Shown in pieces: positions 7,928 through 62,135 of a stretch of DNA of 64,000 nucleotides. The DNA lies in NCBI GenBank assembly GCA_964016885.1, contig OZ024741.1, forward strand, positions 47,244,001 through 47,308,000. The letters run 5' to 3'. Origin of the DNA: Eledone cirrhosa. Its lineage: Eukaryota. How positions within the stretch are numbered: position 1 is the stretch's first letter; the number at the start of each line of letters is the position of its first letter. The translations under genes were made by a program, and so were the position numbers. Under the pieces are notes generated by a model, which saw only the letters and a list, made by a program, of their open reading frames with translations, was not told the origin of the DNA and did not search any database.

Positions 7928-7937
7928 ATATATATAT

Positions 7938-8380
7938 AAATGAAAGGTATAGAAAATATTGTAGCAAAAAGCCAACAGTATTCCATAATATATAAGTGAC
8001 TATAGCGTCAAAATGGGAAAAATATTTAACGTAAGATGTGGGAAAAATAATTCAAACTCAACTCAAAAAGAATCAGGATATAGATTCATCCAACAGAATT
8101 TAGTGAAATCCATGGAAAAATCAATAGAGCCTTAACTCATGATAAAATAAAGTTTAAAATACTCATCCTTCAATTTGGGACAATTACAAATGCTCTGTAT
8201 AGTCTTGAAGACTATTTCACGAAAACTTTCAGTGGAGATGGTCACGGTTAGAATTCGATCCTCAGCAGAGCTCAACTCGATAGCCAAATTTCTCACTGAT
8301 TAATATGCCAAAAAGGGAATTAAAAGCAGGCTAGTTTACCATCATGCGTGATTATGAAAATAAAACTCACATGTGGAAAA
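7938..8380 (-). mobile_element. Hammerhead-containing repeat (putative retrozyme), partial copy 1
   Basis: Homologous to 31343-31767, 32143-32990 and 58408-59108. Bounded by TA runs. Confidence 0.8.
8192..8271 (-). ncRNA. Type I hammerhead ribozyme (retrozyme copy 1)
   Basis: GCTCTG-CTGAGGA-tCGAA...TTCGt-GAAA-TAGTC ttcaa GACTA-TA-CAGAGC. Perfect stems I and III, AUA cleavage triplet, U.U at the 10.1/11.1 pair. Confidence 0.8.
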
Positions 8381-8473
8381 ATATATATAGGCACACACAC
8401 ACACAATATATATATATATATATATATATATCGTTTATATATATATATATATCGTTTATATATATATATCGTT

Positions 8474-16213: not shown

Positions 16214-18206
16214 GGGTGGGAGTAGGGAAGGATATACAGCCGCTAAGAGAGACTAGACGTTAGGTGTACTTAGCACGCAGGGAGGCCGAGAGTAGGAGAT
16301 TTGCTAATGTTCTGCGACGGGAATATCAGAGGCGTGCGGTGTTCCACATTGCAAGGCACTGTGTCAATGCAAATCAGGATGTTGTTGGAGATAAATGTGT
16401 CCGGAATGATGCCGGTGTACTTAGTGTCACGAATGATCAGAAAATGGAGGCCTGCAAATGTCATTATGAGAGACTGATGAATGTGGAGAATGAATTGGAG
16501 AGAGAGAAATTACCCTCAGTAGATCCGACAGAGGGACCAGCTATTGAGATTGACGAATATAGGGTCCAAGAGGCGATTAAGGAAATGAAAAATGGTAAGG
16601 CTGCTGGACCATCGGGGATAGTTGCTGAGATGCTGAAGGCATCAGGGGACGTAGGCACTAAACTGGTTGCACGTATCATCAATCAGGCTATATATGGTGG
16701 TGTCATACCCAAAACTGGTGCAGCAGTATTCTTATAAATTGCTACAAAGGTAAAGGGGATGCTCTGGAGAGGAGCAATTATAGGGGTATAAAACTGATGG
16801 ATCAGGTTATGAAAGTGGCAGAAAGGATATTAGCACAACTAATTAGAGAAAAGGTCAAACTAGATGAGATGCAGTTTGGTACAACAGATGCCCTCTTCTT
16901 GGTGAGACAATTACAAGAGAGGTTCTGAGAGAAAAATAAGCCACTATACTTAGCCTTTGTTGACCTAGAGAAGGCCTTTGATAGGGTACCCCGATCTGTC
17001 ATCTAGTGGTCCCTATGGAAACTAGGTGTTGAGGAATGGCTTGTGAGGACAGTGCAAACTTTGTACAGAGGTGCTGTCAGTAAAGTTAAGGTAGGAATGG
17101 AGTTTAGTGAGGAATTCCAGATACAACTAGAAGTACATCAAGGTTCGGTCCTCAGCTCGCTCTTGTTCATTATAGTCCTCCAAGCCATAACAGAGGAGTT
17201 TAAGACTGGTTGTCCATGGGAACTTCTCTATGCTGACAATCTGGTTCTTATAGCAGAATCAGTAGGGGAGCTAGAGAATAAATTCTGGCTATAGAAACAG
17301 CAGTTGGAAGCAAGAGGACTGAGAGTGAACCTAGCTCAGACAAAAATGTTGATGAGTAGAAAAGAGGACAAAACTCTGATTCCGTCAGGGAAATGGCCAT
17401 GTTCGATATGCAGAAAAGGAACTGGCATAAATTCTATAAAATGCACACAATGCAGATCCTGGGTACACAAGAGATGTAGTGGGATAGCAGGCAAACTAAC
17501 AGGTAGGGAGAAATACGTATGCAGTAGATGTACAGGGAAATTAGACAGTAGAAGTCGCATTGATAGACACATTTTTCATATGCAGGCGGGTGCTATAGAA
17601 GTGGTGGATAGCTTCCGGTACCTAGGAGATCAGATTAGCATGGGAGGGGGTTGTTCCGAGGCCATAGTATCTAGAATAAGGACGGGTTGGAAGAAGTTTA
17701 AGGAGCTGCTTCCTCTGCTGATGAAGTGTTTCTCCCTGCGTACGAAAGGGTGCTTATATGATGCCTGTGAGGAGCGCGATGCTGCATGGTAGTGAGACAT
17801 GGGCAGCAACTGCAGAGGATATGCGACGGCTGAAGAGAAATGAGGCAATGGATGTGCAATGTCAATGTGCGTGAACGACCCAGCATGGATGTGTTGAGAG
17901 AGAAACTATGTCTGAGAGGGATAGAATGTAGTGTGCGAGAGAGGAGATTGAGGTGGTATGGACATGTGATGCGCATGGAGGATGACAGATGGGTGAAGAA
18001 GTGCCAGGAAATGCCAGTTGAAGGAAGACGTGGTAGAAGTAGACCACGAAAAACATGGGCGGAGGTGGTGAGAACAGACCTCAGATCGCTGAAGCTCATG
18101 GTGGAGATGACGAAGGACCGTGACAAGTGGAGAGATGCTGTGCTGAATAAGACCCGTCCCACCCCTGCAAGCAAAGAAGAGCGGACGTAAAATGATGATG
18201 ATGATG
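16214..18206 (+). mobile_element. RTE LINE copy D (third subfamily), truncated and frameshifted
   Basis: ORF pieces 16264-16737, 17043-17294, 17304-17792 and 17840-18190 carry RT and PHD motifs. Short 3'UTR and (GAT)n tail. Confidence 0.9.
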
Positions 18207-21048: not shown

Positions 21049-24000
21049 TTAAAAGCATATTGATGCTTTTGACAGTAAAGAGCAATTAGAAACATACAAT
21101 ATAGAGGAACAGTGGGAATTCCTAAAAGTTAACCTGCTGAAGGCGACAGATGAAATCTGTGGGTGGAGCAGACCTATAGGCAGGAGGAGAGTAACTTGGT
21201 GGTGGAACAGTAAGGTGGAGAAAACAATCAAGGCCAAAAAGCAGGCTTGGAAAGTAGGACAGGATTGGGGAAGTAGAGAACACTATCAAGTGGCCAGGAA
21301 AGAAGCTAGGAGACAAGTGTACTTTGCAAGAAGGGAAGCAGAGGATAGAAAGTTCAAACATGTTCTACAACGCAAGGACCAAAAACGTGAGGTGTTCAGG
21401 ATCGCAAAACAATGTGTCAAGGAAAACCGTGATATTGTCGGGGAGAAGTGAGTCCATAATGGTGATGGTGTACTTGCCCTCACTGATACTGGTAAGAAGG
21501 TCGCTTGGAAGTGTGACTACGAGAGACTACTAAATGAGAAGAATAAATGGGAAAAAGATAGTCTGCCCCAATAGAGGGACCAGCAGTGCAAGTTAATGGT
21601 AGTATAATAAATAAGGCAATCAAAGATATGAAGACAGGCAAGGCAGCGGGGCTTTCGGAGATAGTTGCAAGTATCTGGAATGATGGGACATACTATGGTC
21701 ACCCAGATAGTAAACCAAGTCATACAGAACGGGGTCATACCAAATGACTGGCGTAGCATCATCATCATTAACTGCTACAAGGGTAAAGGAGATGCTCTAG
21801 ATAGGGGACACTGTAGAGGCATTAAATTGATTGACCAGGTCATGAAGGTCACAGAAAGAGTTATAGCACAACTAATCAGAGATCGAATTGATCTAGATGA
21901 AATGCAGTTTGGGTTTGTGTCAGGTAAAAGTACCACAGATGCTCTTTTCCTTGTACGACAACTACAGGAGAAGTACCCAGCTAAAAGTAAACCCATCTAT
22001 TTAGCTTTTGTTGACTTGAAGAAAGCCTTTGACAGAGTCCTCCGCTCCATTATCTGGTGGGCCCTTAGAAAAGTAGGAGTAGATGAATGGCTTGTGAGAG
22101 TTATACAAGCCATGTATAAAGAAACAGTCAACAAGATTAGAATTAACATAGTGAAGAATTTAGCGTAAAATTTGGTGTTCATCAAGGCTCTGTCCTTAGC
22201 CCCCTCCTATTTATTATTGCCCTTCAGGCTATAACAAGAGTTTAACACCAGCTGTCCATGGGAACTTCTATATGCAGATGATCTAACTCTCATAGCTGAA
22301 TCTATGGCTGAACTAGAGAAGAAATTCCTAACATGGAAGCATGGCCTGGAATCAAAAAGCCTTAAAGTTAACTTGTCTAAGACTAAAGCTCTAGTATGTA
22401 GAAAGGAAAATAGGGTACAAGTGCCCTCTGGGAAATGGCCATGCTCAGTGTGTAGGAAAAGAGCAGGTAGAAATTCCACTCTATGCCCCAAATGCAAAGT
22501 ATGGGTACATAAAAGATGTAGTGGGATCACAGGCAAGATAACAACGTAGATTTTATATGTGGCTGATGCTCAGGTACAATAAGTAGCAAGTGCCCACAGG
22601 ATACTAGCTCCTACTGCCCAGATGGCTCTATAGAAATAGTGGACACTTTCTGTTACCTGGGTGACAAAATCAGCAGTGGTGGAGGGTGTTCTGAAAGTAT
22701 AGTAGCCAGAGTTAGTACGGGATGGAAAAAGTTCAGAGCTTATACCGCTGTTGGCCACAAAACGTTTCTCTCCAAAAATGAAAGGCAGATTGTATGATGC
22801 TTTTATACAAACAGCAATGTTACATGGCAATGAGACATGGGCATTATGTGCAGAGGACCTGCGCAGACTGGAAAAGAATGAAGCATGCATGCTCCGTTAG
22901 ATGTGTAATAGTAATATACACGAACAGCAAAACCTAAATGAACTAAGTGAGAAATTAGGAATAAGAGGGATCAGATGCTGTTTACTTGAGAGAAAATTAC
23001 GTTGGTATGGTCATGTGATGCGCATGAAAGACGACAGCTGTATAAAAAAGTGCAGGGCAATCAAAATTGATGGAAGTTACGGAGTAGGTAGACCCAGAAA
23101 AACCTGGGACATGATAAATTCCGACCTTGCACACTTACATCTCTCAAAAACAATGTCACTGGATCAAGATCTTTGGCGCCACGCAGTAATACAGAAGACC
23201 CGCCTTCCCCACATGCAAAGTTAACCTACAGTCAGTAGGCCCCTCCAAACCAAATATACACCCCAACCCACTACCCCTACTTCATTCTTCCACTCCCACC
23301 AACACCACCCTTTCTCTATAAAGTTATGTTGGTACCACAACATCCAGTCCAAACTAATGAGGTCATGTAGGTGTCACAACAAAAAAGCACCCAGTCCACG
23401 CTGTAATGTGGTCGTGTAGGTAACATCGTAAAAAGCTCCCAGTCCACACTGTAAATGTGGTTGGTGTTAGGAAGGGCATCCTGCTGTAGAAAACCTGCCA
23501 GATAGTCCTATACGAGCGAGACACGGTCACCCAACCAATCTTGCCTCAAGTGGGACAATTACCGTCTAACCCATGCTAGCGTGGAAGATAGACGTTAAAC
23601 GATGATGATGATATCATTGAACAGTTAATCCTATAGATTATTCACTAAGCTATTGTCTCTACAAATATTGATCTAACAATGTGGTTCTACTATTGCAAGG
23701 CAGCTAGTGTCGATGTTATGAAAAATGCTACCAGTAAACACCGTAAATTGGTTGACATCAAGAAGGGCATTAAGCCAGAGAAACCAAGCCCAAAACAACA
23801 TGAACAAAACATGGTCACCCAACCTATTTGTCTCACGTTACAACTCAGCTAACTCATGCAAACATTGAAAATAGATTATAAATAATATTAGCTTAACTTT
23901 ACATGCATGAATTTCTACCACACACAAACCTACAAAACATACTTCCCTTCTATTTTCCCCACCTATATCTCACTCCACATCCTTACACAGTCTTGCCAGT

Positions 24001-26913: not shown

Positions 26914-27001
26914 CTCCATTACAGAATGACTTTGGTGTAAATCCAAAATACTGTGTGGAATATTCTTCCATTTTAATAACTTCAAGATCAGCTTCAGCCA
27001 T
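26914..27001 (-). CDS. MIS12: Mis12 kinetochore protein, coding exon 1 (MAEADLEVIKMEEYSTQYFGFTPKSFCNG-)
   Basis: ATG at 27001. Y..QYFGFTP matches the Mis12 N-terminal motif (human YEAQFFGFTPQ). GTGAGT donor at 26913, phase 1. The exon's acceptor (tttccttcag) is at 27044, so 27002-27043 is 5'UTR. Confidence 0.9.
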
Positions 27002-27080
27002 CTCGGTGTATTGTAAGTTTTAATTATCCAGTTGAATTGAAGACTGAAGGAAATAAAAGAAATATTTCAGACATATATTC

Positions 27081-27127
<47 letters not shown>

Positions 27128-27139
27128 GACATATATTCA

Positions 27140-29380
27140 ATACACAATGTGTCAAGGAAAACCGTGATATTGTCGGGGAGAAGTGTGTACTTAATGATGA
27201 CGGTGTACTTGCCATCACTGACGCTGATAAGAAGGTAGCTTGGAAGTGTCACAACGAAAGGCTACTAAATGAGGAGAATAAATGGGAGAAAGACAGTCTT
27301 CCCCACATCGACCCAATAGAGGGACCAGCAGTGTTAGTCGAAGGTAGTATAATAAGTAAGGCAATCAAAGATATGAAGACGAGTAAGGCGGCTGGGCCTT
27401 CGGAAATAGTTACTGAAATGCTGAAAGCTTCTGGAACGGTGGGACACACCATGGTCACCCGGATAGTAAACCAAGTCATACAGAATGGGGTTGTTCCAAA
27501 GGACTGGCGTAGCAGCATCATCATTAACTGCTACAAGGGTAAAGGAGATACCCTAGATAGGAGTAACTATAGAAGCATTAAATTAATCGACCAGGTCATG
27601 AAGGTCACAGAAAAAGTAGTAGCGCAACTAATCAGAGAGACAATTGATCTAGATGAAATGCAGTTCGGGTTTGTGTCAGGCAAAAGTACCACAGACGCTC
27701 TTTTCATTGTACGACAACTACAGGAGAAGTACCTAGCTAAAAGTAAACCCCTATACTTAGCTTTTGTCGACTTGGAGAAAGCCTTCGACAGAGTCCCCCA
27801 TTCCATTATCTGGTGGGCTCTTAGAAAACTAGGTGTTGATGAATGGCTTGTGCGAGCTATACAAGCCATGTATAAAGAAACAGTCAGCAAGGTTAGAATT
27901 AACAACGAATATAGTGAAGAGTTTAGCGTAAAAGTTGGTGTTCATCAGGGCTCCGTTCTTAGCCCCTACTATTTATTATCGCCCTTCAGGCTATAACAGT
28001 GGAGTTCAAGACCGGCTGCCCATGGGAACTCTATACGCAGATGATCTAACACTCATAGCTGAATCAATGGCCGAACTAGAGAAGAAATTCCAAACATGGA
28101 AGCAGGGCCTAGAATTAAAAGGCCTTAAAATTAACCTGTCTAAGACTAAAGTTCTAGTTTGTAGGAAGGAAAATAGGGCGCCGGTCCCATCCGGGAAATG
28201 GCCATGCTCAGTGTGTAGGAAAGGAGTAGGTAGAAACTCCATTTTATGTCCCAAATGCAAAGTATGGGTGCATAAAAAATGTAGTGGGATCACAGGTAAG
28301 CTAACTAAGAACATAGATTTTACATGTCGCCAGTGCTCTGGTGCAATAAGTAGCAACAAGTGCCCACAGAATACTAGCCCATTCCATTGCACAGATGGTT
28401 CTATAGAAATAGTGGACAGCTTCCGTTACCTGGGTGACAAAATCAGCAGTGGGGGAGGGTGCTCTGAAAGTACAGTAGCTAGAGTCAGAACTGGATGGAA
28501 AAAGTTCAGAGAGCTTATACCACTATTAGCCGCTAAAGGGTTCTCCCTAAAAATGAAAGGCAGGTTGTATGATGCCTGCATACGAATAGCAATGTTGCAT
28601 GGCAGTGAGACCTGGGCATTATGTGCAGAGGATATATGCAGACTGGAGAGGAACGAAGCTTGCATGCTCCGCTGGATGTGTAATAGTAATATACGTGAAC
28701 GGCAAAGCATAAACGAACTAAGGGTAAAAAATTAAAAATAAGAGGGATCAGATGTTGTTTACTCAAGAGAAGGCTACGTTGGTATGGTCACGTGATGCGC
28801 ATGAAAGACGACAGCTGTATAAAAAAGTGCAGGTCAATAAAAATAGACAGTAGCCACGGAGTAGGCAGACCCAGAAAAACCTGGGACGACTTGATAAATT
28901 CCGACCTCACACACTTACACCTCTCCAAGACAATGTCACTGGACCGAGATCTTTGGCGGTACTCAGTAATAGAGAAAACCCGCCTTACCTAAGTACAAAG
29001 TGAAACCTACTAGTCAGTAGGCACCTCTAACAAAATACACCCCCGTCCCACTACCCCCACCTCATCCACACCACCCTTTCAATGTAAAATTATGTTGGTA
29101 CCACAACATACAGCCCGAAACAAATGAGGTCGTGTAGGTGTCACGACAAAAAAAACACACAGTCCACGCTGTAATGTGGCCGTGTAGGTAACATGGTAAA
29201 AACCTCCCAGTTCCATACTGTAAATGTGGTTGGTGTTAGGAAGGGCATCCAGCCGTAGAAAACCCGCCAGACAGTCCTATGCGAGCAAGACAACCACTCT
29301 TGCCTCAAGTGGGAAAACTCCCGTCCAAACCCATGCAAGCGTGGAATATGGACATTAAATGATGAAGATGATGATGATGA
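27140..29380 (+). mobile_element. RTE LINE copy G (subfamily of copy A), 5'-truncated, frameshifted
   Basis: ORFs 27037-27996, 27935-28735 and 28792-28992 are highly similar to copy A. (GAT)n tail. Confidence 0.95.
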
Positions 29381-31298
29381 TATATATAGAGAGAGAGAGA
29401 TACATACACACAGATACATACACACACACATGTATATATACATAAAATATGCCTGTGTAAAACAATTTAAGAATTATGCATTGTTAAGAAAGTTATGAAA
29501 AAAGTTGCAATATATAGTGTGGAGGGAGGGGAAGCAATAAACTGTAGTAATGGCTTTCTCTTGCTTCAGCAAATTAAATATTGTACTTAAGTATTAAAGA
29601 AGATAAACGGCAAAATCAAATATGTCGCTGCAAGTCCTGATGAGCTATGAAGTATCCGGGAGTCGATAAAAGTGTTTTATTGAAAAATTGCTACAAGTTC
29701 GAATTATTGAATCTGTTCCGCTGGTTTATTTCAAACATGCCTCCGCTTATTACGGGTTTTTTATTCCGTCTTTGCTTAATAAAGTTGGGCATCAGCAATT
29801 TTGTAAAGAACAAATGAACTACATGAAGAAATATGCGGTTGCGAGTTTGTATCATTTGCATCTCTTTTCATGCTCTCGGGTCATCCACCTCACACCCGCT
29901 TATCAAATTTTTTAACTTTTCCCACTACCACCCATCCCACTTACTAAATTTTTCTGATCTATCCCCAGCAAAATTTTATTTTAAGTGGTTCCTGCGACAA
30001 TTAATTTTCTTTATACAATGACAAACATGACAAAATAAAAAACAAAACATGAAAATCAATGGGAACAACCTAGAAAAATTATCGATTTTCCAAAACCCAC
30101 CCCCTATTATTTGGAACCTAAAGGTACATTCATATACGTTACGATACACATATACACCAGCAGAAAACGTCACAGAAGAAAGTATTTCTGCTAACGTAAA
30201 GTTCATAGGCATACTATGTAGGAGTGATGTGAAATCTTGCATGCATTAATTTCACATCTTAATAACTGTATTGTTTCTTTCCAGTAACTATGTTGAAAAA
30301 TAAGCCTCATTTGGTCATTCCATGAGAGTATCGTGGTCAGCCTATGAACCTTTCAACTGACCCTGGTAATTCAATATCACTCATGGTAATGCCGCCAGTG
30401 TGTTGGTTCGCCTCAAAAGGTAGTAGAGGGAGGTTTCAGCACCCCTGTGGTGTGTAACCGATTGACCGTTTTAAATTAACATTTTCTTTCGTCTTTGGAT
30501 TAAAGTCATTAATTGATTTTATTTACAGTAGCAATAGTAATAATTGTTTCTACGTTTGGCACAAGGCCAGCAATTACCCAGAGCATTACTGGTACTTTAT
30601 TTTATCGACCCCGTAAGGATGAAAGGCAAAGTTAACCTCGGCGGGATTTGAACTCAGAATGGCAAGGGCCGTAACTCTATACGTCAAAGCATAGCGTCCG
30701 ACCCTCTACCGATACTGCCAATCCACAATAATAATTCTTTCTACTATTGGCACACGTCCAGCAATCATCCCAGTGTATTACTGTCACTTTATTCTATCGC
30801 CCCCCCCCCCCCCCCCCCCCCCCATAAATATGGGGGGGGGGGCGATAGAATAAAGTGACAACTATAATAACGGCAAAAACTTTTTTTAAAAAGGAAACAG
30901 AGGGGGGGGGGGAGAAAGAAAGGAAATATAGAGAAAAAGAAAGAAAAAGAACGGGAAGGGGATGGCAAGAGCTCTGGAGACACGGAAGAGAGGGGAGAGT
31001 GACGGGGGATGATGATTGAGCTTTGGACAAGGGGGCAGGAGTGCTGCGCCCTGCAGACAAGACGGAAACTTTTGAGAAATATTTATGAGATTAAAAATTG
31101 TATTTATGCGTAAATTTTCATTCTGTAAGAATCAAAAATAATTACTAATTTTTTCTTTTTTTGTTCCAATTTTGGGTAAACCTATAGAATAGCGAACTAA
31201 TGTAAGGGACGTAATTTGAAAAATTGTGTATATATAACAACCATACCATGCATCCTTATAAATGTATGTATAGGCGTGTTTTATATATATATCTGTTA

Positions 31299-31342
<44 letters not shown>

Positions 31343-31347
<5 letters not shown>

Positions 31348-31767
31348 GAAAATAAGAAATTAATGTGGGCAAGAAGCCAATAGTAATTCATACATATAAG
31401 TGACTATTACGTCAAGATGGAAAATATTTAACGTAAGATATGGGAAAATAATTTAATCTCAATTCAAAAAAATATCCACAGATTTTGTGTAATCCAAGGA
31501 AAAAAACCAATAGAGTCTTAACTCAGAATAAAATTAAGGGTAAATACTTATCCTTCAATTTGGAAAAATCTACAAATGCTCTATATAGTCTTAAAAAGAC
31601 TATTTCATGAAACTTTTCAGTGGGGTTAGTCACAGTTTGAACCATTCATCAGTAAAGCTCAAACACAATAACCAAAAATCCACTGCTAAAATATGCCAGA
31701 AAGGGAATTTAAAAGCAGGCTAGTTACACTTTGTGTGGAATTAAGATAATAAACACACATGGAGAAT
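31343..31767 (-). mobile_element. Putative retrozyme, partial copy 2
   Basis: Homologous to the other copies and flanked by (TA)n. Confidence 0.8.
31578..31658 (-). ncRNA. Type I hammerhead ribozyme (retrozyme copy 2)
   Basis: GCTTTA-CTGATGA-ATG...CAT-GAAA-TAGTC tttttaa GACTA-TA-TAGAGC. Confidence 0.82.
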
Positions 31768-31875
31768 ATATATATATATTGCGGTATAAAAACGTTGAGA
31801 GTTGGTGAAATAAATCACTGCCAATACTGGAATTGAATAATCAAAACCGTAGCGGTATGTCGCATATCAAATCTT

Positions 31876-31940
31876 ATATTTTGTCTGATGAAAACGTACT
31901 TAAACACCATTGTACCTTTGAAATATGTATAATAAAATAT
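31876..31940 (+). ncRNA. Minimal type I hammerhead (Penelope pLTR-like)
   Basis: ATATTTTGT-CTGATGA-AAAcGTAC...GTACcTTT-GAAA-TATGTA-TA-ATAAAATAT. 9-bp stem I, near-palindromic short stem III. Confidence 0.72.
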
Positions 31941-32045
31941 ATATTTTGATTATGAGAATATTTTTCATTTATTAACATTTTGAATAATATATATATGTAT
32001 ATATATATATATATATAATGCACGCCTAACCCTACTTAGGCGTGC

Positions 32046-32090
<45 letters not shown>

Positions 32091-32142
32091 CAAAATGTTA
32101 ATAAATGAAAAATATTCTCAATCAAAATATATATTTTATTAT

Positions 32143-32982
32143 TTGAAGGATGAGTATTTAAACTTTATTTTATTCTGAGTTAAGACTCTATTGGTTTTTT
32201 CCTTGGATTTCACAAAATCCGTGGATAAAATCTGTCTTAATTTTTTTTTAATTGAGATTGAATTATTTTCCCATATCTTACGTTAATTATTTTCCATTTT
32301 GACGTTATAGTCACTTATATATTATGAAATACTGTTGGCTTCTTGCACATTAATTTCTATATTTTCATTTATATTTATACTCAGAATTTTCCTAGAGTGC
32401 TTAAAATTATTTGTGACTAATCCCGGTCTTTTTTTTTTTAAAACCGCGATAATATTGCTATTAGCTGAACTCCTTACATTTTGTAGAGTTTTTCGGAATG
32501 TTTTTGACTGCTGTTTCTTGTAAACTGATATTCGTCTCATTCTGACGTCACCAGCCATGTTTCTCCATGTGTGTTTATTTTCATAATTCCGCACGAGGTG
32601 AACTAGCCTGCTTTTAAATTCCCTTTCTGGCATATTTTGGCAGTGGTTATCATGTTGAGCTCTACTGAGGAACGACTCCAACCGTGACTAATCTCACTGA
32701 AAAGTTTCATGAAATAGTCTTTTTAAGACTATATAGAGCATTTGTAGTTTTTCCAAATTGAAGGATGAGTATTTAAACTATATTTTATTCTAAGTTAAGA
32801 CTATTGTTTTTTTCCTTGGATTTCACAAAATCTGTGGATAAAATCTCTGTCTTGAATTTTTTTTTAATTGAGTTTGAATTAGTTTCCCATATCTTACGTT
32901 AATTATTTTCCATTTTGACGTTATAGTCACTTATATTATGAAATACTGTTGGCTTCTTGCTCACATTAATTTCTCTATTTTC

Positions 32983-32990
<8 letters not shown>
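32143..32990 (+). mobile_element. Putative retrozyme copy 3, ~1.4 tandem units (period ~615 bp)
   Basis: 32143-32372 is directly repeated at ~32758-32990 and the copy ends in (TA)n. Confidence 0.85.
32659..32739 (+). ncRNA. Type I hammerhead ribozyme (retrozyme copy 3)
   Basis: GCTCTA-CTGAGGA-A.GA...TC.T-GAAA-TAGTC tttttaa GACTA-TA-TAGAGC. Stem II is weakened. Confidence 0.78.
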
Positions 32991-40689: not shown

Positions 40690-41345
40690 ATATCTGTTGA
40701 CCGGAAGTGACCACCAGGGAGTCTGGTCAATCCCAAAGGGAAGCAACTCCACCTACTTCCTGTCTAGAGAGCAGTGATGAGCTTGTCATGGCAGGGGAGG
40801 TAACTCTTACTACATTATCTCCCGCCAGATTTTTAAAACATAAAAATCGAAATAAGCATGCATGGAGTAAGATGGCGAGCATGTAAGAGGCATGAAAACT
40901 ATGGTACAGAGTAATGGAAGTAAGAGAAGAGGTCAAAAGTTCAAATATCTAAAATACAGTTAACATGTGTGCAGTCACATGACAGCAGTAAAGAATGTGT
41001 TCCAGAGAATGAATGCAGATGGTTTCTGGTCTGTGGTATAACATGAAATGTCCAACTTCCGAAGGTAATTTCTCACAGGCAGAGTGCTGCAGAAATAAAT
41101 TGTCTGGCTTGTTCTGCTGGTTTTAGTTGTTGATGAAGCTGTGTTGTTGTCGTTGATGTTGTGAATGCGTTGACCTGGAAGGGTCAAGAGGCCAGCGACC
41201 AGAGAAATAAGCATTCTTAATAAATGCGCGGTTATCAACGGTAAATTCACGTGGTAAATTTATAAACCGGCAAATAGAAGAATATAGCTTAAAATGTTCG
41301 TTGTAAAGGAAACGAAAAACATATATATATATACATCCAGTGAAA
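40690..41345. repeat. Left arm of a long diverged inverted repeat (partner 45680-46870)
   Basis: 40975-41295 is the reverse complement of ~46100-46525, 40760-40960 of 46530-46830, and 41293-41332 of 45688-45724. Roughly 80% identity by eye, with indels. Confidence 0.85.
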
Positions 41346-41424: not shown

Positions 41425-44400
41425 AGGCTCCAATGGCCAGTTCACATAAAAATAGTTTGGCAGAACTTTTTGGGCCAGTGTACTCTCCGACAGGAACGGA
41501 TCGTAGTCTTGTATGTAGGTGAAGGTGGGGCAGAAGGAGCAGGTGTATGCACAAGAGAGAAAGATTGGGGTATTTGTGGCTCGGGTGTATGAGCGTCATT
41601 GTGTGCCCTTTTCAGTCTATCCACCGAAATTGTCTCTCTGGACCCCTTAACGTCTACAGTGAAATGTTTGTCAGTGCGTGCTAACACACGGTAGGGTCCA
41701 GAGTATGGTTGTGTGAGGGGTGGTCTCACAGCATCGTTCCTTACGAACACATGGGTCCACGAGGCAATGTCCCTCGGGACCGCAGGTTTTACAGTTTGCT
41801 TCCTCGTATCCATCGGCGGCAGGTCCTGTAAATAAGAACGCAGACGGGATACGTAGGAAAGCGGATCTTGGAAAGCAAGATCAACAGGGGCGAGCATTTG
41901 CCCAGGCAACGCTAGAGGAGCACCGTAAATTAATTCGGCCGGGGAGAACCCAAGGTCCTCCTTTATTGATGACCGAATTCCTAATAACACAAAAGGAAGG
42001 TACTCGCTCCAACGTTGAGAGTCTGGATAGGCGCGAAGAGCGGTCTTTAATTGGCGGTGGAATCGCTCCACCATTCCATTTGAAGCAGGATGATAGGCTG
42101 TGGTCCGAATCCGTTGAGCTCCAATTATTTTGGTGAGCTCAGAGAAGAGATGGGACTCGAATTGTCTACCGCGGTCTGTGATGAGTGTAGTTGGTACCCC
42201 AAAGCGGGTAATCCACCCTGATACCAGGGCACGTGCTACAGTCTCAGCAGTCATTTCTTGTAAAGAGATGGCTTCAGGCCATCACGAAAAACGATCGACA
42301 CACGTCAATATGTAGGAATGTCCACTGCTGAATGGCCAAGGTCCAACGATGTCAATGTGGATGTGTTGGAACCGAGCATCTGGAGTGGTGAAAGTACCCA
42401 GTGGAGTCCGGATGTGTCTATGGATCTTCGATTTCTGGCAAGCGATAGAGGAACGGCACCAAGCAGCAATGTCGCGCCTCATGTTAGGCCAGAAGAATCT
42501 GGCTGTTATGAGTTTAACTGTGGCAGCAGATCCTGGATGAGAAATGTTGTGCAGAGCCAGGAACACAATTCGACGGTGAGTCTCAGGAACAAGTGGTCGT
42601 GGTGCATCAGTGGATACATCACAAAGAATCTGCCTGTCGGTGGTGGACAAGGGCAGATATTTGAAAATGCAAGTCGCAAATTCAGTAGAAAGAGTGTCCA
42701 ACGATTGGAGTGCAGGTTGGTCTGCAGCTAAACGACCTAAATCGATATCCTGGGATGACGAGATGGAGCTAATTGGCAAACGTGATAATGCGTCTGCAAC
42801 TATGTTGTGCGAGCCGGCAATGTGCTGGATATCGTTTGTAAATTGTGAAACGTAGTCCAGGTGCCTTGTCTCTCTGGGCGAATATCTGTCGGCTTTGGCC
42901 CTCAAAGCGAAGGTCAACGGTTTGTGGTCGGTAAAAACCGTAAAATTTCTCCCCTCAAGGATATGGGAGAAATGTTTCACCGACAGATATATGGCTAACA
43001 ATTCCCGCCCAAACGTGCTATAACGCGTTTCTGCTGGTTTCAACTTCCTCGAGAAAAATGCCAAAGGTTGTTGGTTTTCAGCGTAAGACTGCTGTAAAAC
43101 TGCTCCCACAGCGGTATCAGATGCATCAACACAAAGCGAAAGCTTGGCCTCTGGTACCGGGTGGGCTAGCAAAGAAGAACTAGCGAGGGCTGTCTTGGCA
43201 GACTGGAAGTCCTGAAGCTGTCCTTGTGTCAAGGAAATGTCTTCATTCTTCTTACGACGATTTTTTAAAATGTCAGTAAAGGAAGATAGCCAATTAGCAC
43301 AATGAGGAATGAAACGCCTATAGAAATTGATTAGGCCTAAGAAGTGACGCAACTGGTGAAGTGTAGTAGGCGGCGGTAACTCCTGTATGGCTTGAACTCG
43401 CTGAGGGAGCGGCCTAATACCTTCGGCGTCGATGAGGTGGCCTAAAAAATGTAGGGAAGTGGAACCGAAAACACACTTTGCAGGATTCACGCAAACGCGG
43501 TAATCCTGAAGTCGCCGAAGTAAGAGAAGCATGTGGCGCATATGCTCTTCCGGAGAGGAACTAGCGACGAGAATATCGTCTATGTAAGCATAGACGAAGT
43601 CCAGACCACGCATGACCTCGTCTATGAACCGCTGAAAAGTGCTAGCGGCGTTCCTGAGTCCGAAAGGCATGGTCAAAAATTCGAATGATCCGAAAGGGGT
43701 TGTAATCGCAGTTTTCGGAATATCCTCCTTCCTGACCGGAATTTGGTGGTAGGCTCGCACTAAATCTAACTTAGAAAAAATCTTACACGCCTGCAGTGAA
43801 GATGCAAAATCGTGGAGATGGGGAATGGGATACCTATCCGGGACGGTCATGGCATTTAACCTCCTATAATCCCCCGTGGGTCTCCAGTCACCGGAAGTCT
43901 TGGGCACCATGTGTAACGGTGAAGCCCAAGGACTCGTAGATGGGCGAATAATGCCCAGCTGCAGCATATGGTCGAACTCGGACCGTGCTGCCTTTAATTT
44001 TTCCATCGGTAAGCGGCGTGGACGCGAAAACACTGGGGCACCGGTGGTGGAAACGAAATGTTCGGTCGAGTGTGCTGGGTCAGTGACTCGAAAATTTCCA
44101 TTCGTGAGCTCCGGGAAAGAACCCAGTAACGCATGGTAAGCGTCACCAGCGGCAGCGATAAAGAACACGGGGCTGACTATTGGGGCATTGGCTTCCTGGC
44201 CATGAATTGAAAAGCGGGTGATGTTATCCACCAGGCGTTGGCCACGGACGTCCACAGTTAAAGAGAAGTTGTGGAGGAAATCCGCTCCTAAGATGGGATA
44301 TGGCAAATCGGCAACCGTAAAAATCCACTTAAAATCCCTTCGAAGATTTATGAATTTAAGAGGGAGCGAGATTTGCCCGTACGTCTTTATAGACGAGTGG

Positions 44401-45680
44401 TTAACTGCCTGCAGCGTAACAGATGACTCTATGGGGGTATCTTTCAGGCAATGGACCGGCCAGATACTACAGGAGGCTCCTGTATCCACGAGGAAACCTC
44501 TTCCGGATATTAGGTCCTTAATGAAGAAATGGCGGTTTGGTGGCTTTATGTTGAGGCCATCTGTCCCCATCAGAGGACCTCTTATGCGTTTCCCGCCTTA
44601 TGATAGGAGCAAGGTTGCACGCAGTGCTTCGCGTTCTCAGCGAATCGCTCGTGGTACCAACATAGGGATGAAGCTGGTGATTTGGAACGCCGTCTGAAAC
44701 TTTGCGATCTCCCGCGACTGCGGGAGCGCGAACAGCCACCACACAAGGCCTTCATCTTGTGGAGCTCCATGGTGAGCTCCTGAATGGACCTTTGCATCGC
44801 AATGATAGTCGAGCTGTCTGTTGGCGCTGCCGCGTAGATCGCATGGCCGTGTGTGGCCCGAGCTGGGTGTTGAACAGCGGCGAGGGGGTCGCTGTCTCCG
44901 GCATTCGTCACCTCGAAAATTTTGTCCGCCGATGAGGCAAGCTGCTCAACCGTGCTTGAATCCCTCATGGGGGCCAAAATTGCCTGTACGTTTGTCGGCA
45001 GGCGCGAAAAGAACAACTGCTTCAGCAGGACAGTTTCCGCTGCAGACCCCTCCGTTAGGTCCTTCATTCGCCTAAGGAGGTTCGATGGGGTGCCATCCCC
45101 TATATGCTCCAGGTGGACCAGAGCCCTAAATCTCTTCTCTGACGACTGTTCTGTCCGGCTGAGTATTTCAGCCTTCAGAGACGTGTACGACGATTCTGTC
45201 GTTGCCTCTAACACGAGGTCCTTGACCGCTGGGAGAATTGCCGGCGGAATTGCGCTGAGGACCACAGAATGTTGTAGTTCCTCGTCGACTCTGTTCGCCC
45301 TGAAGAAAGCTTCTAACTGCGAGAACCATAACCTTACGTTGCCCGTGTACGTTGGCAGAACAGAGTGGGAAGCCATTGGTATGCCGTAGTAATCTACCGT
45401 TTGGGAAAAATGTCTCTAAGGTAACAGAAAATGAAAACTAAATTCTTTCGTCAGACCACCCTGACGTGATACCAACACGCAGCCGTTCATTGTTATAAGT
45501 GGTCACCCCGAAAAAAGAAAAAAATAGCAGAATCCGGTGTTGTGTGAGTAACATTACGAATACACAGCAAATTTATTGACAAACTATGAAAATACTCAGT
45601 CAAAGAAACGAACACACCACGCACATGTGAAATTCGCGTTCAGACAGACTTTTTCTCTCACGCATCAACTAACTGTCGCA
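41425..45680 (-). mobile_element. Ty3/Gypsy element 1 (gag 44582-45376; pol 42282-44570; integrase C-terminus 41442-42254), no direct-repeat LTR pair
   Basis: Gag has WFSQLEAFF and a CWYH..F...A..C..PC knuckle. Protease [14 protein letters not shown], RNase H DAS..AVGAVL, integrase HHCC, DDE and GPY. One stop at 42282. GGGAAAC slippery site at 44588-44594. Confidence 0.95.
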
Positions 45681-46870
45681 TTTCACGATATATATATATG
45701 TTTCTCGTTTCTTACAACGAACACTTTCAAAACAAAAAAAAAAAAGAAATTTGATATTTTTTAAAAAACATTTCAACAGGAAAATTTATTTTCGATGAAC
45801 CCTTGCCTTTTTTTTTTTTTCATCGTTTTCTTCATCGTTCAAGTTTTTTTTTCAAAGTTCACACCAATAATTATGCTAAGTGAAGCCTTTCTTTTTCATC
45901 ATTGTCACTTTCACACTTGCACTATCATTTTCTATCACTTTCACACTTGCACTATCATTAGAAATATTATTTTTTTAAACCTAACTTAACCTTGTATTGG
46001 CACGTGTAGGCAGCACAAATTCTCAACTCACAGAGATATCTCGACTCACAGAGATAGCCGCACGCCAGAGATAACGTTTCTCGCCAAGGATTCTTCAGCC
46101 TTAAGCTATATTCTCCTATTTGCCGGTTTAAAAATTTACCACGTAAATTTGCCGTTGAAAACTGCGCATTTATTCAGAATGCTTATTTCTTTGGTCGCTG
46201 GCCTCTTGACCCTTCCAGGTCAACGCATTCTCAACATCGACCATCAACTTCGGCTGTTATTTCTAGCACTTTGCGCAACTCATTTTTTCTGAAAAAATTT
46301 TTTTTACTGTAAATTTAAACACCGAATACGCTCACTCCGCGAGACAGCAACACAGCTTCACCAACAACTAAAACCAGCAGAACAAGCCAGAGAATTTATT
46401 TTTGCAGCACTCTTCCTGTGAGAAAATCCATTCGGAGGTTGGAAATTTCACGATATACCACAGAACAGAAACCACCTGCATTCATTCTCTGGAACACACT
46501 TTCTTTCCTGCTGTCATGTGATTGCACACCTGTGAACTATATTTTGTACATTTGAACTTTGAGCTCTTCTCTTACTCTATTACATTGTATCTTTGGGTGA
46601 TGGATAGATAGAGGTCCAGTCGTTCTCTGGCCAAGAGCGGTTGGCTACCTTGACATCTATCATTGATTTTTGTCGTAATTTTCATGCCTGTTACAACATT
46701 CTCGCCAACTTGCTACATATTTCATTCGATTTTTATATTCTAAAATTCTGGCGGGAGGTTATGTAGCAGTGGCCTCCCTTGTTGTGACTCACAACCCCAA
46801 TAGATTAACAACATCTAGACGGGAAGCAGAACCCTTTCTGTAACATCCGGTCAGAACCCTATAAAACTAA
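45680..46870. repeat. Right arm of the long inverted repeat
   Basis: See left arm. Has extra inserts (~45725-46100, ~46245-46345, ~46590-46670) and TATAAAA at ~46860. Confidence 0.8.
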
Positions 46871-51123: not shown

Positions 51124-54100
51124 AGACAGCAGCCTAACAAGATACCGACATGGACATGTCACAACCAACGACAGAGGCCGAGATACCAACCACACAAGCG
51201 GCTTTAACATTGAAAGTCCCTGTGTTTTGGTCCAACGACCCGACTCTGTGGTTCGCTCACATAGAAGCACAATTCGCCGCTAACAGAATTAAGAGCGATT
51301 CTGCAAAACTTACCTATATCATTGGGTCTGTCCCGCCAGAAGTCTTGGCTGAGGTGAGGGACCTCGTCATGGCACCGCCGGGCACGGTGTCATATGAATC
51401 ATTCCGCAAGGAATTGATCAAGTGAACGACCGCGTCACAGCAGAGACGACTCAACCAACTCGTGTCTGCAGAAGAATTGGGGGACAGAAAACCATCCCAA
51501 CTATTGCGAAAGATGAGACGGCTGATGGAAGACCAGCTGGTTTCAGAAGATGTGCTGAAACGGCTGTTTATACAGCGCTTGCCCTTATCAATTCAGGGCA
51601 TTCTGGCATCGACCAACGAGTCAGCAACCCCGGAAGAACTGGTGAGTGTCGCAGATAAGATCGCTGAGGTGTCAAACCCTTTTGCCTCAGTGGCACAAGT
51701 AGATCATCGGATGAACCTTTACGTAGCGTCCTCGGATTCCACCTCCGAGATTTTTTAGAGCTGTAGGCTATGATCAGAGAACAGGCTGGTCAAATTAAAG
51801 CCCTCTCAAACCAATTAGAGAACCTGACCTTTCAAACACACCGGCGGCGCAGCAACAGTCGATTCAGGCCCTTTCACCGTCGAAGATCCAGAAGTCCCAG
51901 TCAAAATCGTGTGTCTGGCAACCTCTGCTGGTATCACGAAGAATTCGGCGCACAGGCATCTAAGTGTAGGGCCCTGTGCTCTTTCCAGAATACCACCCAG
52001 GGAAACGGGCAGACCAGGGCCTAGCGACGACGTTCACCCCTGGTACTGAGAAGAAAAGTCGTCTGTTTTTTATCAACGACCAAGCGACAGGCATCCGTTA
52101 CCTCGTGGATACAGGAGCCCAGGTTAGTGTTATTCCTGTTTCTCTAGTCTCGGGCAAAAACACCCAACCCCGTCCTTTCTGTAGGCAGTGAACCAATCGT
52201 CAATTCCGACTTTCAGGGAGAAATCACTGACCCTCAATTTAGGCCTGAGGCATCGTTTTCAATGGGTGTTCGTCGTGGCAGACCTGCCGACCCCTATCTT
52301 AGGAGCCGATTTTCTCCACCACTTCAACCTTCTGGTGGACATGAAGAACCGGAGGCTTATTGACACCACCACAAACCTCACTGTGAGAGGTATATTTACC
52401 ACGAAATCCACAGTGAGCCCTGTAATTTGCCAGTCAGAGCCTTCGCGGTACAACGGCATTCTCCAGAAATACCCAGACATCACTCGCCCGGTATTTAAGG
52501 ATGGTCCTATTAAGCATAGTGTCACACATCACATCGAGACAAGAGGACCACCCACAGCTTCCCGATCAAAGAGACTGCCTCCAGACCGCTTGAGAATCGC
52601 CAAACAGGAGTTTCAACACATGCTGGACCTCGGAATCATTCGCCCTTCCTCCAGCAACTGGTCTGCACCCCTATACCTTGTTCCTAAAAAAAAAAACGAG
52701 AATGATTGGCGACCATGTGGGGATTATCGTGCACTTAACAATTCTATAGTACCCGATAATTACCCTGTACCTCACTTGCACGACTTTTCTGCCTCTCTGC
52801 AAGGTGCACGCATCTTTTCCAAGATAGATTTGGTACGGGCATATAACCAGATACCTATGGAGCCTGCAGATATTCCGAAGACCGCAATCACCACACCGTT
52901 CGGTTTATTTGAATTCCTGCGAATGCCGTTCGGTCTGCGCAACGCCGCACAAACTTTTCAGCGGTTTATTGACACCGTGTTACGTGATCTACCCTTTGTA
53001 TACGCGTATATCGACGACGTGCTGGTAGCAAGTACTTCCGAGCAAGAACACGAGAAGCACTTAGATCTTCTTTTCCAACGTTTGGCCGAGTACGGTATTA
53101 TCATCAACTCCAGCAAGTGCCTTCTTGACGTTCCTTCACTGTCCTTTCTCGGGAACATCATTCCTGGGGAAGTAGAAGCTATCCGCAATTTTCCCGCACC
53201 TACATCACTTCGGAAACTGCGTGAATTCCTCGGTTTGGTGAATTTTTATAGGCGTTTCATCCCTCATTGTGCCGACGCATCCAGACTCCTCACGGACCTT
53301 CTTCGCAACCGGACTCGGAAAAACGAAGACATCACTCTGAACGAAGAAGAATTAACATCTTTTAACCGCCTGAAGGAAATGTTGGCAAACGATTCCATGC
53401 TCGTTTTCCCCAGATCTGGCGCTCCTCTTTCGCTGCTAGTTGACGCATCAGACACGGGGGTTGGAGGCATTTTACAACAATATGTCGACGGCGTTTGGCA
53501 ACTCCTATCCTTCTTTTTTAAGCGGTTGCAACCTGCAGAAACCAAATACAGTACGTTTGGCCACGAACTCTTGAACATTTTCGTCACATGCTCGAAGGAT
53601 CGGATTTCGCGATCTACACGGACCATAAACCACTAGTTTATGCGTTCCGTACCAAACCTGATCGACATTCACTGAGAGAACTCCGACACCTGGATTTTGT
53701 CTCCCAATATTCAACTGATATTCGGCATATCAAGGGATCAGACAACGTAGCAGCCGACGCCCTGTCCCGAATCCAGCTGAACGCAATATATGTGCATTCA
53801 GGCATCGACCTTCAACAGATCGCAGCTGACCAAGAGACTGACGAAGAGTTTATCAAGCTCCGAGATTCGCCATCCCTCAAGTTTCAGCAAGTTCCCATTC
53901 CTTCTTCTCCGGGACAAATTTGGTGCGACCTTTCTACCGGTCATGAACGACCGTACGTACCACGGATGCATCGTCGACAAGTTTTTTCTGCTTTACACTG
54001 CTTGTCTCACCCGGGAATCCGGGCTACACAGAAACTCATCTTTGCTCGTTTTGTGTGGACTAACATTAACAAGGACGTGCGCGACTGGTCCAGGACCTGC

Positions 54101-55994
54101 ATTGCCTGCCAGAAAGCCAAAGTCCACAGACACATCAAAACTCCACTCGGCACATTCGCGCAACCTGATGCACGTTTTCATCATGTGCATATCGACATCG
54201 TTGGACCTCTATCACCATCACAGAACTGCACACACTTGCTCACCTGCATAGATCGATTTTCCCGTTGGCCTGAGGCTTTTCCCAAAGTGATACCTCAGCG
54301 GAAACAGTCGCTAGAACTTTGGTTTTACACTGGGTATCACGTTATGGCGCCCCAGCGAAGATAACAACGGACAGAGGACGCCAGTTTGACTCCCACCTCT
54401 TCAGGGAACTGACTCGCCTATTAGGATGTAAACACATCCGCACGACAGCTTATCACCCGCAAGATAATGGTCTCGTGAAAAGATTCCATCGCCAATTGAA
54501 AGCTGCAATAAAAGCATATCCAGACACTGGTTTGAATACCTGCCACTCATCCTTCTGGGCATTCGATCCACCGTTAAGGAGGAATTCGGACACACACCTG
54601 AAGAATTAGTGTACGGCACCACCCTGGTTCTACCTGGTCAGATGGTTGCTCCCATCTCTCCTCAGGACGTTCCAGACCCAGGATCATACGTACACCGTCT
54701 TCGACAATATATGTCTCACCTTGCTCCTGCAAGCACCCGTCAACAGAACACGGCCACACACATACCTTCAGACATTAAAGATTGGACACACGTTTTCGTT
54801 CGAAACGACACCATCTCAGCTCATCTTCGACCTCCATATTCTGGCCCTTATCGTGTTCTAAAAAAATATCCGAAACATTTTATTCTCGATCTAGATGGTA
54901 AACAGAATTCTGCCAGCGTGGACAGATTAAAAAAAGCCATCATGGATACTGTTACAGCCTCTACACCAGAAACTCTAACAGATTGCTGTCCCAGCAAGCC
55001 ACCTGTTTCATCTCCAGTCACGAGAAGTGGATGACGTGTCCATTGGCCCGCCAAGTTGGCACAATATGTGAATTACCGTTAACCTCAAGTGAGTTTCTTA
55101 ATCATTCTTCTTGCAAAATATTCCCATTTTCCTTGTTGTTACTATTTCCAGTTTCAAATACAATGAACTTTCTGCTTGAACAATTGCAATTTTTAGTGAC
55201 CATGTGCTCATGTCACGAAGATTATTTATTATGAACATTATCTATTACAAAAACTATTTAAGAACAAACATTGTGTATAGCATTGTGTATAACATTTTTT
55301 TTTTTCTTCTCTCTCTTGTCTTGCAAAAATCTTTTTTTTTTTTTCGTTCTGCAACATTAATTGTGTAATTGCCATAATGTTTATATACATACAAGGCGTG
55401 TACATATTCTGTTTTTCATGCATACTACACAACCACGTTTGTTTCACCTTTTGGTTCATACACTGAGCAATAGATATTTTTGTCGCTCTAACTCTTACAC
55501 TACAAAATGTTTTCTCTTTGATCACGCATTTCACAAATCGCACCCTCAAAACACTGGCCTTCTCAATAGCTCGAGAATGCCTCGCTATTTTTTACCACAT
55601 GCATTCGCTCAAGTCATATGCTTTGGAGCAAACTGTTACTTTTAGGCAGCATGCTTACGGCCATTCAGTTCACACATTACGGTTATTTTCACTTCCCTGT
55701 TAGACTTTTTGTCACGCAATTCACAGGCAGCTCAACCCAAATTGCAACAGGCTCATTCATCACGCCTGCATAAATCTGGTCAAAGTCATTTTATAGTTTA
55801 TTTCTTTTTTCTCTTCCTGACACACACATCTTGCCATATCATCTCTACATCGACTCTGTCCTATACTCGATGATCACCAAACTTCACAACGTGCTGGACA
55901 CACCTTGGGCTATTGCCATGACAAATGCACCACTGGCTCATTACTATACGATATTTTGCTCTTTTGTTATACAAAAGATCTGGCAGGGGATTAA

Positions 55995-58367: not shown

Positions 58368-58407
<40 letters not shown>

Positions 58408-58411
<4 letters not shown>

Positions 58412-59108
58412 GAAAGGTATAGAAAACATTGTAGCAAAAAGCCAACAGTATTCCATAATATATATATATAAATCAAAGGTATAGAAATTATTGTAGCGAG
58501 AAGCTAACAGTATTCTATAATATATAAGTGACTATTACGTCAAAATGGGAAAATAGTTAACGTAAGATGTGGGAAAAATAACTCAAACTCAATTCAAAAA
58601 GAATCAGGATATAGATTTATCCAACAGAATTTAGAGAAATCCAGGGAAAAATCAATAGAGCCTTAACTCATGATAAAACAAAGTCTAAAATACTCATCCT
58701 TCAATTTGGGACAACTTCAAATGCTCCGTATAGTCTTGAAAAGACTATTTCACGAAAACTTTCAGTGGGGATGGTGACGGTTGGATTCCGTTCATCAGCA
58801 GAGCTCAACATGGTAACCAAGGTCTCACTGATTAATATGCCAAAAAGGGAATTTAAAATCAGGCTAGTTTAACATCATGCGTGATTATGAAAATAAAACG
58901 CACATGTGGAAAAACAGGGCTGGTGACGTCAGAATGAGACGAATGTTTGTTTACATGAAACAACAGTAAAAAACATTCCGAAAAAAAACTCTACAATAAG
59001 GAGTTCAGCAAAAAGCAATATTATCGCGGTGTTTTTTTTTTTAAATACCAGGATTAGTCACGAATAATTTAAGCACTCTAGGAAATAAATCCGAGTATAT
59101 ATAAATGA
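58408..59108 (-). mobile_element. Putative retrozyme copy 4, one full unit plus a duplicated ~55-bp end fragment
   Basis: Homologous to 32380-32990. Abuts (TA)n at 58371-58407. Confidence 0.85.
58723..58804 (-). ncRNA. Type I hammerhead ribozyme (retrozyme copy 4), best-formed copy
   Basis: GCTCTG-CTGATGA-ACGGAA...TTTCGT-GAAA-TAGTCTT ttc AAGACTA-TA-CGGAGC. Predicted cleavage between 58729 and 58728. Confidence 0.88.
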
Positions 59109-59648
59109 ATATATGTATATGTGTGTATACACACCACTCAGTCAAACGACCAGATTTCAACCCCAACATCTACAACAACAACACCGGCACTAATGTTTAC
59201 AGCAACAACAGCTTCAGAATGAATTGAAATGAACATTTACAACAACAACAACAGCGGCATCAAACGATAAAAAAAAACCCCTCAAAATAACAAAACACAC
59301 GCACACAACACAACATCAACTGCCACCACCACCACCACCGCCGCCATCACCATCACCAGCGACCGGGCCTTAAGAAAACAACAACTTTAATAATAATAAT
59401 TTTTCTGCTTTTGGCACGGATCCAGCGACTGTGCCAGCGCATTACTGGTACTCTCTTTTGTTGACTCCGTGGGGATGAAAGGCAAGGTTGACCTCGGCGG
59501 GATTTGAGCTCAGAGCGTGGAGAGCCATAGCTCTATGCTGTAAAGCAATTATAATAATACTGAACTGTAACACGAACGGCTTCAACTATACGAACTCTTG
59601 AAAGTCAACAGTTGACATAATCTTGTAATCTTGTATCAGTAATGACGG

Positions 59649-62135
<2,487 letters not shown>

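Follow-up and report, generated by a model that had tools for sequence, protein, structure and literature searches.

What kind of element lies at positions 58408-59108 of this stretch of Eledone cirrhosa DNA, and how could it have spread? The window, by which we mean the whole 64,000-nt stretch that was analysed, carries four related loci which a preliminary description had filed as a retrozyme family. Our analysis supports this filing: the repeats are non-coding, multi-copy and partly tandem, their hammerhead shows selection at the level of lineages, and their insertions bear marks of the kind left by Penelope-like elements (PLEs). We thus describe non-coding repeats of about 632 nt with a conserved type I hammerhead, which reside by the thousands in (TA)n microsatellites and are likely mobile as a retrozyme, a reading to which we assign a probability of roughly 0.62. 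Judged by sequence, the repeat satisfies the definition of non-LTR retrozymes and constitutes a new family within the metazoan representatives of that already described class, its novelty being judged against the literature, while an earlier entry as an unclassified repeat in Repbase or Dfam is possible.

All four loci lie where the preliminary description had placed them, and each copy retains CUGANGA, GAAA, the TAGTC/GACTA stem III and the AUA site. A strict scan of the complete 64 kb in both orientations, requiring CUGANGA, GAAA, at least 3 pairs in stem III, a UH site and at least 4 pairs in stem I, returned exactly these four matches (Table 1), and the pairings quoted for stem I are correct throughout. 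The alternation of ACG/CGT and ATG/CAT claimed for stem II, in contrast, is found in the 58k and 31k copies, but breaks down in the 32k copy (C.A) and the 8k copy (U.U at 10.1-11.1). What had been taken for a single copy at 58408-59108 resolves into one full unit and a short duplication of its 3' end, and the proposed unit length of ~615 bp has to be revised to a median of 632, as 615 is merely the period of the deleted copy at 32143-32990. A partial tandem does exist at this latter locus, but its upstream part starts downstream of the cleavage site, such that two or more consecutive complete ribozymes, while present in arrays elsewhere in the genome, occur at none of the four window loci. Having one ribozyme each, the window copies are likely dead-end inserts. 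An origin of the inverted pair 31344-31766 / 32143-32990 in one event was ruled out: the two copies are separated by other DNA and, because they are only 85% identical, 31344-31766 is considered a separate insertion. The claimed lack of a credible ORF holds for the two window units examined, with longest stop-free frames of 85 and 105 codons, both antisense, and at most 55 codons on the ribozyme strand.

Table 1. Features of the window discussed in the text (positions are those of the 64,000-nt stretch).
Feature	Position	Strand	Basis or remark
Full-length unit of the likely retrozyme, subfamily A1, single ribozyme	58468..59105	-	BLAST against other copies and arrays; clustering
Type I hammerhead of the 58k copy	58723..58804	-	Motif scan, coordinates, pair counts
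Stem I, 58k copy	58804-58799/58728-58723	-	
CUGAUGA, 58k copy	58798-58792	-	
Stem II, 58k copy	58791-58786/58757-58752	-	
GAAA, 58k copy	58751-58748	-	
Stem III, 58k copy	58747-58743/58735-58731	-	
Predicted cleavage after AUA, 58k copy	between 58729 and 58728	-	
Flank/loop II helix, 5' strand (pseudoknot or blocking helix)	58806..58830	-	Covariation, folding
Flank/loop II helix, 3' strand, within the 40-nt loop II	58763..58783	-	Covariation
Conserved TGACGTCA palindrome	58924..58931	-	80/92 full copies
57-nt duplication of the unit's 3' end	58408..58465	-	
Target microsatellite (TA)19 adjoining the fixed 3' end	58371..58408	.	
5'-truncated copy, hammerhead core 8265, U.U at stem II base	7936..8381	-	
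5'-truncated copy, hammerhead core 31652	31344..31766	-	
Upstream partial unit, 5'-truncated, starting after the cleavage site, without ribozyme	32143..32372	+	L041
Full unit with small deletions, subfamily B, core 32665, C.A mismatch in stem II	32371..32990	+	
Motif-scan cores, one per locus	8265; 31652; 32665; 58798	-; -; +; -	
5'-truncated young PLE, separate from the repeat	59750-62100 (GIY-YIG-end ORF 61063-61863)	-	Candidate trans-acting partner family
Own, unrelated hammerhead of the window PLE	core 59843	-	~55 nt from the 3' end anchored at (TA)n 59651-59749

The multi-copy character claimed for the family extends to the whole host genome, where arrays of 2-13 units are found. The core pattern CTGANGAN{37,42}GAAATAGTC has 2,534 exact matches there, compared to 11 for the reversed control pattern, and a 21-nt motif close to the 3' end has 4,774, compared to 0 for its control. 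Scaled by the recovery of sampled segments (61/83 for the core pattern, 91/119 for the 3' motif), these counts correspond to ~3,400 ribozyme-bearing units and ~6,200 units overall, both of which are lower bounds from a sample biased to well-kept copies. Natural monomers, measured from cleavage site to cleavage site, span 618-651 nt (n = 27), with a GC content of 33-34% and one type I hammerhead per unit. After removal of 13 duplicate or window loci, clustering of 211 segments from 99 loci groups 125 full units in four main subfamilies that are 9-24% apart. With a C-type unit as query, the best 40 scored candidates contain units that are 98-99% identical and spread over many contigs, and in the young subfamily, at ~99.4% identity, full units from different loci differ by a mean of 3.9 substitutions per 622 nt (16 loci). 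The coexistence of four divergent subfamilies with near-identical young units therefore points to several waves of spread, the latest of them very recent. Three contig runs of unrecorded kind cover 29/29 bins with many variant contigs, which speaks to presence only.

No LTR structure was seen in any fetched locus, an RT or GIY-YIG ORF was found neither within the unit nor joined upstream of it in the sampled loci, and a search with ARAGORN for a tRNA-like head, as in tRNA-derived SINEs, yielded no tRNA gene in 5/5 array loci, a result that degenerate heads could escape. The TGACGTCA palindrome is invariant across the 6 subfamily majorities; it looks similar to a CRE/ATF site and is a possible internal promoter element.

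Is the hammerhead under selection? Conservation of the core in excess of its flanks, which the preliminary description had made one of three touchstones of its proposal, is indeed observed. Among 69 copies chosen by overall similarity and not by their core, 61 have the whole core intact; position 7 is free (U34, G26, C8, A1), and every other core position differs in at most 2/69. At the level of lineages, none of the 22 core and stem III columns varies, whereas 150 of the 461 background columns with few gaps do (p=0.0003). For private changes the core shows only a modest deficit (0.49% vs 1.37%, p=0.03) and stems I and III show none, which is what one would expect if selection acts on the source RNAs and not on inserted copies. 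In young loci, a core substitution is present in 2 of 52 ribozyme-covering units.

In a 73-row alignment, of which 22 rows were picked by the core pattern, 94.1% of the cells of stems I-III are paired, with three doubly changed pairs; the number of these pairs is not above that of shuffles (170/500), while the cell counts and the covariation score are (0/500), both inflated by relatedness. Stem III is paired, without double changes. On a tree of 92 copies, in which changes fall on separate branches, a core pair of stem I is G-C in 55 copies, A-U in 35 and broken in 2, a second stem I pair changed in a compensatory way in one 3-copy clade, and a C-G pair of stem II became U-A in 12 copies. The basal stem II pair, 10.1-11.1, which in hammerheads is usually G-C, is A-U in 57/92 and U.U in 30/92 copies. 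Stem II is also poorly populated in folding, with a mean probability of 0.10 in the presence of the upstream flank and 0.23 in its absence, and it is missing from the predicted fold of the 58k copy, which has a competing hairpin private to it. From the U.U and the weak stem II, the ribozyme may be slow. A U.U at this position is shared with the weakly active axolotl HHR_Amex2 (PMC7229834), and cleavage was seen in one of nine predicted Xenopus retrozymes tested by Li et al. (2026; bioRxiv 10.64898/2026.07.22.740005), so that activity of the predicted ribozyme cannot be assumed here.

Rfam hammerhead models, proposed at the outset as a check, do not recognise this ribozyme: neither a search of the window at E<=1 nor one of 58450-59900 at E<=10 gave a match. 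The miss is likely due to the loop II of 39-41 nt, and implies that Rfam-based surveys overlook long-loop hammerheads even at thousands of copies. For comparison, the giant squid paper gives 235 hits for Rfam hammerhead 1 (PMC6962438). We found no description of a cephalopod retrozyme in the literature, where the supplement of PMC7229834 may list related mollusc hammerheads.

A second conserved structure involves the 25 nt upstream of stem I, which pair with loop II. The resulting helix comprises 16 pairs with 91.5% of cells paired, compared to 19-52% for slid controls, and has 4 double-changed pairs (7/500 shuffles), two of which rest on a single sequence each. Within it, GUUG/CAAC is changed to GUAG/CUAC in 8/92 copies, and another pair is seen as G-C, G-U and A-U. 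In folding, the presence of the flank lowers the mean probability of stem I from 0.85 to 0.27, and in 45/73 sequences the fold with this helix is more stable than the active one (means of -21.6 vs -20.7 kcal/mol). The arrangement resembles the pseudoknots that stabilise about 40% of hammerheads at the corresponding position (Perreault et al., 2011; PMC3088659), where the stem II loop likewise pairs with a strand beyond stem I, and GUUG/CAAC stands at the expected position. However, those pseudoknots have ~4-6 pairs and the present helix up to 16, so that part of it may block instead. At its full 16 pairs the helix is probably too long for stem II to form alongside it. The helix may act either as an activating pseudoknot or as a block; since the alignment consensus also contains a rival partner for this strand, the assignment is tentative. 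As most circles of animal retrozymes are predicted not to be blocked by self-pairing (PMC7229834), a block would be new.

It is tempting to combine both roles in a still-spreading retrozyme with a two-state switch, in which the 16-pair helix silences the hammerhead so that the circle survives for PLE-driven rolling into (TA)n, while the proximal 4 pairs double as an activating pseudoknot. We regard this elaboration as possible but tentative, with the balance tipped against it. If true, the switch would be the self-pairing block that animal retrozymes reportedly lack, and the young arrays, with their near-identical units, would directly record rolling-circle target-primed reverse transcription in the genome. 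In consensus helices across the unit, 6 of 98 pairs are double-changed, consistent with selection on RNA helices. Circle stability is uneven across 15 monomers, with z from -7.5 to -0.6, and shows no preference for the ribozyme strand, the antisense being as low or lower in 5 of 9 tested.

The anatomy of the insertions is strand-polar. Read on the ribozyme strand, nearly all loci share one 3' end position, whereas they start anywhere at the 5' side. As claimed in the preliminary description, they are anchored in (TA)n: (TA)3+ is present at the 3' end of 113/119 loci and at the 5' end of 88/119, compared to 7.9% of random windows. Long direct target duplications are convincing in 2/119 loci (L003, L107), the rest being hidden by (TA)n. 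Sixty-eight loci outside the window were selected for carrying a full unit (two pairs among them overlap or are duplicated); in 55 of the 68 the sequence runs on upstream into a partial unit, which is again its 3' end. When loci are instead chosen by their 3' 171 nt alone (30 loci, 6 of them already sampled), 23 fall short of one unit in length and 24 cross the cleavage site, with 0 starts within 5 nt of it; the template was therefore not a cut linear monomer. Insert size ranges from 0.3 to more than 13 units, one locus (L193) shows a head-to-head 5' inversion, and a unit end at an internal position occurs in 4/16 young loci. In two independent young inserts (L195, L196) this end lies at unit position 198, hinting at a second priming site.

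The arrays further record how units within a locus are related. In 34 loci, the partial unit and its adjacent full unit diverge by 3.2%, compared to 4.5% between the partial unit and other copies of the subfamily (p=9e-6), and the two share 41 rare alleles where 2.95 are expected, 11 of the 41 stemming from one locus. Four of 16 young loci have a variant that is present in every covering unit (5/5, 13/13, 4/4, 2/2) and absent from other loci; the remaining 12 lack such an array-wide private variant. These shared private variants are as expected from a rolling circle, as far as sequence can tell, but local duplication yields them too. The latter would not explain the commonest form, in which a 3' fragment stands upstream of a full unit with an exact array junction. 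DNA-level duplication has nevertheless occurred, as follows from the dimer or trimer higher-order repeats in L128, L129, L133 and L189. L133 (G000:C1:82127000-82136500) is an old array of at least 13 units; within a dimer expansion that recently arose inside it, core-dead and intact ribozymes alternate. An interpretation of the higher-order repeats as marks of multimeric circles with one live ribozyme was not adopted, since it fits L133 only.

Which enzyme could have mobilised such a repeat? PLE families ending in (TA)n are abundant in the host genome, and the window itself contains a truncated member of a young family (Table 1), for which a first look gave 59,356 candidates; the best 150 scored are 97-100% identical, and full ORFs have 890-896 codons. 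An older family was also sampled. Protein matches of the PLE include an Argonauta entry, and Pfam returned 0 families for its ORF. Between the repeat and PLE ends, no homology was found by BLAST or nhmmer against two PLE families and the PLE fragments in fetched loci; a profile of the repeat retrieved its own copies alone in 709 kb of fetched loci, and an additional 70 kb gave no match, a sample that covers a minority of the genome's PLE families. PLE hammerheads in the host genome have a weak stem III of 1-3 bp and are unrelated in sequence to the repeat. Mobilisation by PLEs, a likely but putative route, is supported by insertion style and co-occurrence. PLE fragments next to the repeat in six loci (L004, L015, L033, L044, L062, L186) were considered as chimeras and rejected, since (TA)n or unrelated DNA intervenes.

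Hammerheads of other kinds are common in this genome, which is rich in uncatalogued representatives. Between the two middle copies of the window, 31873-31945 (+) holds a minimal, unrelated type I hammerhead (core 31885) with a weak stem III; this fragment adjoins a long palindrome at ~31930-32130 and is likely a PLE 3' end. At least 6 further type I families, with a stem III of 1-4 bp, were noticed in the fetched loci (e.g. L042/L059, L050/L071, L054/L128, L118, L009, L025).

From these features we can outline a putative life cycle of the repeat as a retrozyme. Loci carrying two ribozymes would be transcribed, and predicted self-cleavage after AUA would release a monomer RNA, which is likely circularised by ligation, a step that RtcB performs in other retrozymes (PMC7229834). 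On a nicked (TA)n, priming could then occur at the circle's UA-rich junction, and rolling-circle reverse transcription by a borrowed Penelope-like reverse transcriptase, with a PLE as enzyme donor, would generate multimeric inserts; some arrays were later enlarged by local DNA duplication. A model of more-than-unit-length cDNA has been stated as a proposal in a review (PMC7761336).

Could the repeat have spread in another way? One might see in it a satellite, amplified at the DNA level by unequal exchange or extrachromosomal circles and carrying its hammerhead as a relic, for which the higher-order repeats in 4 arrays and the alternation of dead and intact ribozymes in L133 could be quoted. 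We give this a slim chance, as it leaves unexplained the strand-polar ends, with a fixed 3' and a ragged 5' side, the 23 of 30 loci that are shorter than one unit, the dispersal over many contigs and the compensatory RNA changes on separate branches. Only a little better placed, and still very unlikely, is a retrozyme mobilised not by PLEs but by another non-LTR element, for instance the presumably RTE-like LINEs of the window. Fragments of LINE RT are abundant there, and the repeat has no detected PLE homology; yet its 3' part does not resemble the LINEs of the fetched loci either, and partial tandems, 5' inversion and (TA)n on both sides are habits of PLEs (PMC8557442).

Two further alternatives stay closer to the retrozyme reading. 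The same family could be copied from uncut linear multimers, transcribed from arrays, with a slow ribozyme trimming only some of the RNAs. Slow cleavage is suggested by the U.U at the base of stem II and the competing helix, homogeneous source arrays of 5-13 units exist, and the absent pile-up of 5' ends at the cleavage site suits uncut linear RNA as well as it does circles. We nonetheless hold this to be unlikely: the strict selection on the core in every lineage implies that cleavage is needed for spread, a 3' end that is fixed inside the unit, ~260 nt away from the cleavage site, and inserts that exceed most source loci in length are more simply explained by a circle, and circles have been shown for coral, mussel and axolotl retrozymes (PMC7229834). 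The unit might, finally, belong to an autonomous PLE as its pseudo-LTR (pLTR) or 3' UTR, the copies we see being truncated. Indeed, type I hammerheads are found in the pLTRs of PLEs, Xenopus retrozymes show homology to such pLTRs (Li et al., 2026), and a rare master copy could escape searches in which the best 40 candidates were scored. But 55 of 68 full-unit loci run 5' into the unit's own 3' end, no flank read enters an ORF, and the PLE hammerheads here, with their weak stem III of 1-3 bp, are unrelated in sequence; in line with the preliminary description, which had named such an origin as contrary to its proposal, no copy sampled among the fetched loci is part of an autonomous element. To this last alternative we grant the slimmest chance of all.

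How does the family compare with known systems? It is most similar to the metazoan non-LTR retrozymes described from coral, Mytilus mussel and axolotl (Cervera and de la Pena, 2020; PMC7229834), with which it shares non-coding units of less than 50% GC in tandem and dispersed form, one canonical type I hammerhead per unit with a stable stem III, thousands of copies and co-occurrence with PLEs. It differs from them in the long loop II and the covarying flank/loop II helix, in its strict (TA)n targeting with few visible duplications, and in being known here from DNA sequence. Its monomer was said to be longer than is typical, which is true with respect to the 150-450 bp of those retrozymes, but not to the family lengths of 51-972 bp given by Li, Clavereau and Pollet (bioRxiv 10.64898/2026.07.22.740005). 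The latter authors treat retrozymes as non-autonomous PLE derivatives that, as here, form monomers, dimers and multimers alongside PLEs; their stated scope is vertebrates, insects and a coral, with no mollusc, and among TEs annotated as PLEs they describe 21 with pLTR homology, while our repeat gave no such homology in the fetched loci. PLEs with a C-terminal GIY-YIG and a (TA)n preference (Craig et al., 2021; PMC8557442 and its preprint) are described with the same partial tandems, 5' truncation and adjacent 5' inversions, with (TA)n targets that hide duplications, and with a type I hammerhead; the repeat, in contrast, has no ORF, and its hammerhead is canonical, not minimal. Both the integration of retrozymes and what keeps the ribozyme from reopening the circle are treated as open in PMC7229834 and the 2026 preprint. 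For these questions the family is a testable case, as one subfamily is very young, the (TA)n target is defined and the priming site fixed, the genome also contains a young PLE whose ORFs are open, and compensatory changes back a candidate switch.

The surroundings of the repeat hold several other elements. A short, abundant and unclassified element of ~95 bp, built on a 35-bp inverted repeat, also ends at (TA)n (L004:1365-1460, L111, L028, L037, L070 and others). Within the window, several copies of LINE RT elements, which from their motifs we take to be RTE-like, lie at 3957-7620, 12281-13575, 16264-18083, 21317-23612 and 26980-29381, and gag/pol frames mark two Ty3/Gypsy-like LTR retrotransposon remnants at 41442-45415 (-) and 52185-55034 (+). 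The segments 40905-41151 and 46343-46589 are inverted repeats, and the window begins with a 36-bp minisatellite of 42 copies (1-1502), followed by a 29-bp CATCAT-rich array (1512-1851).
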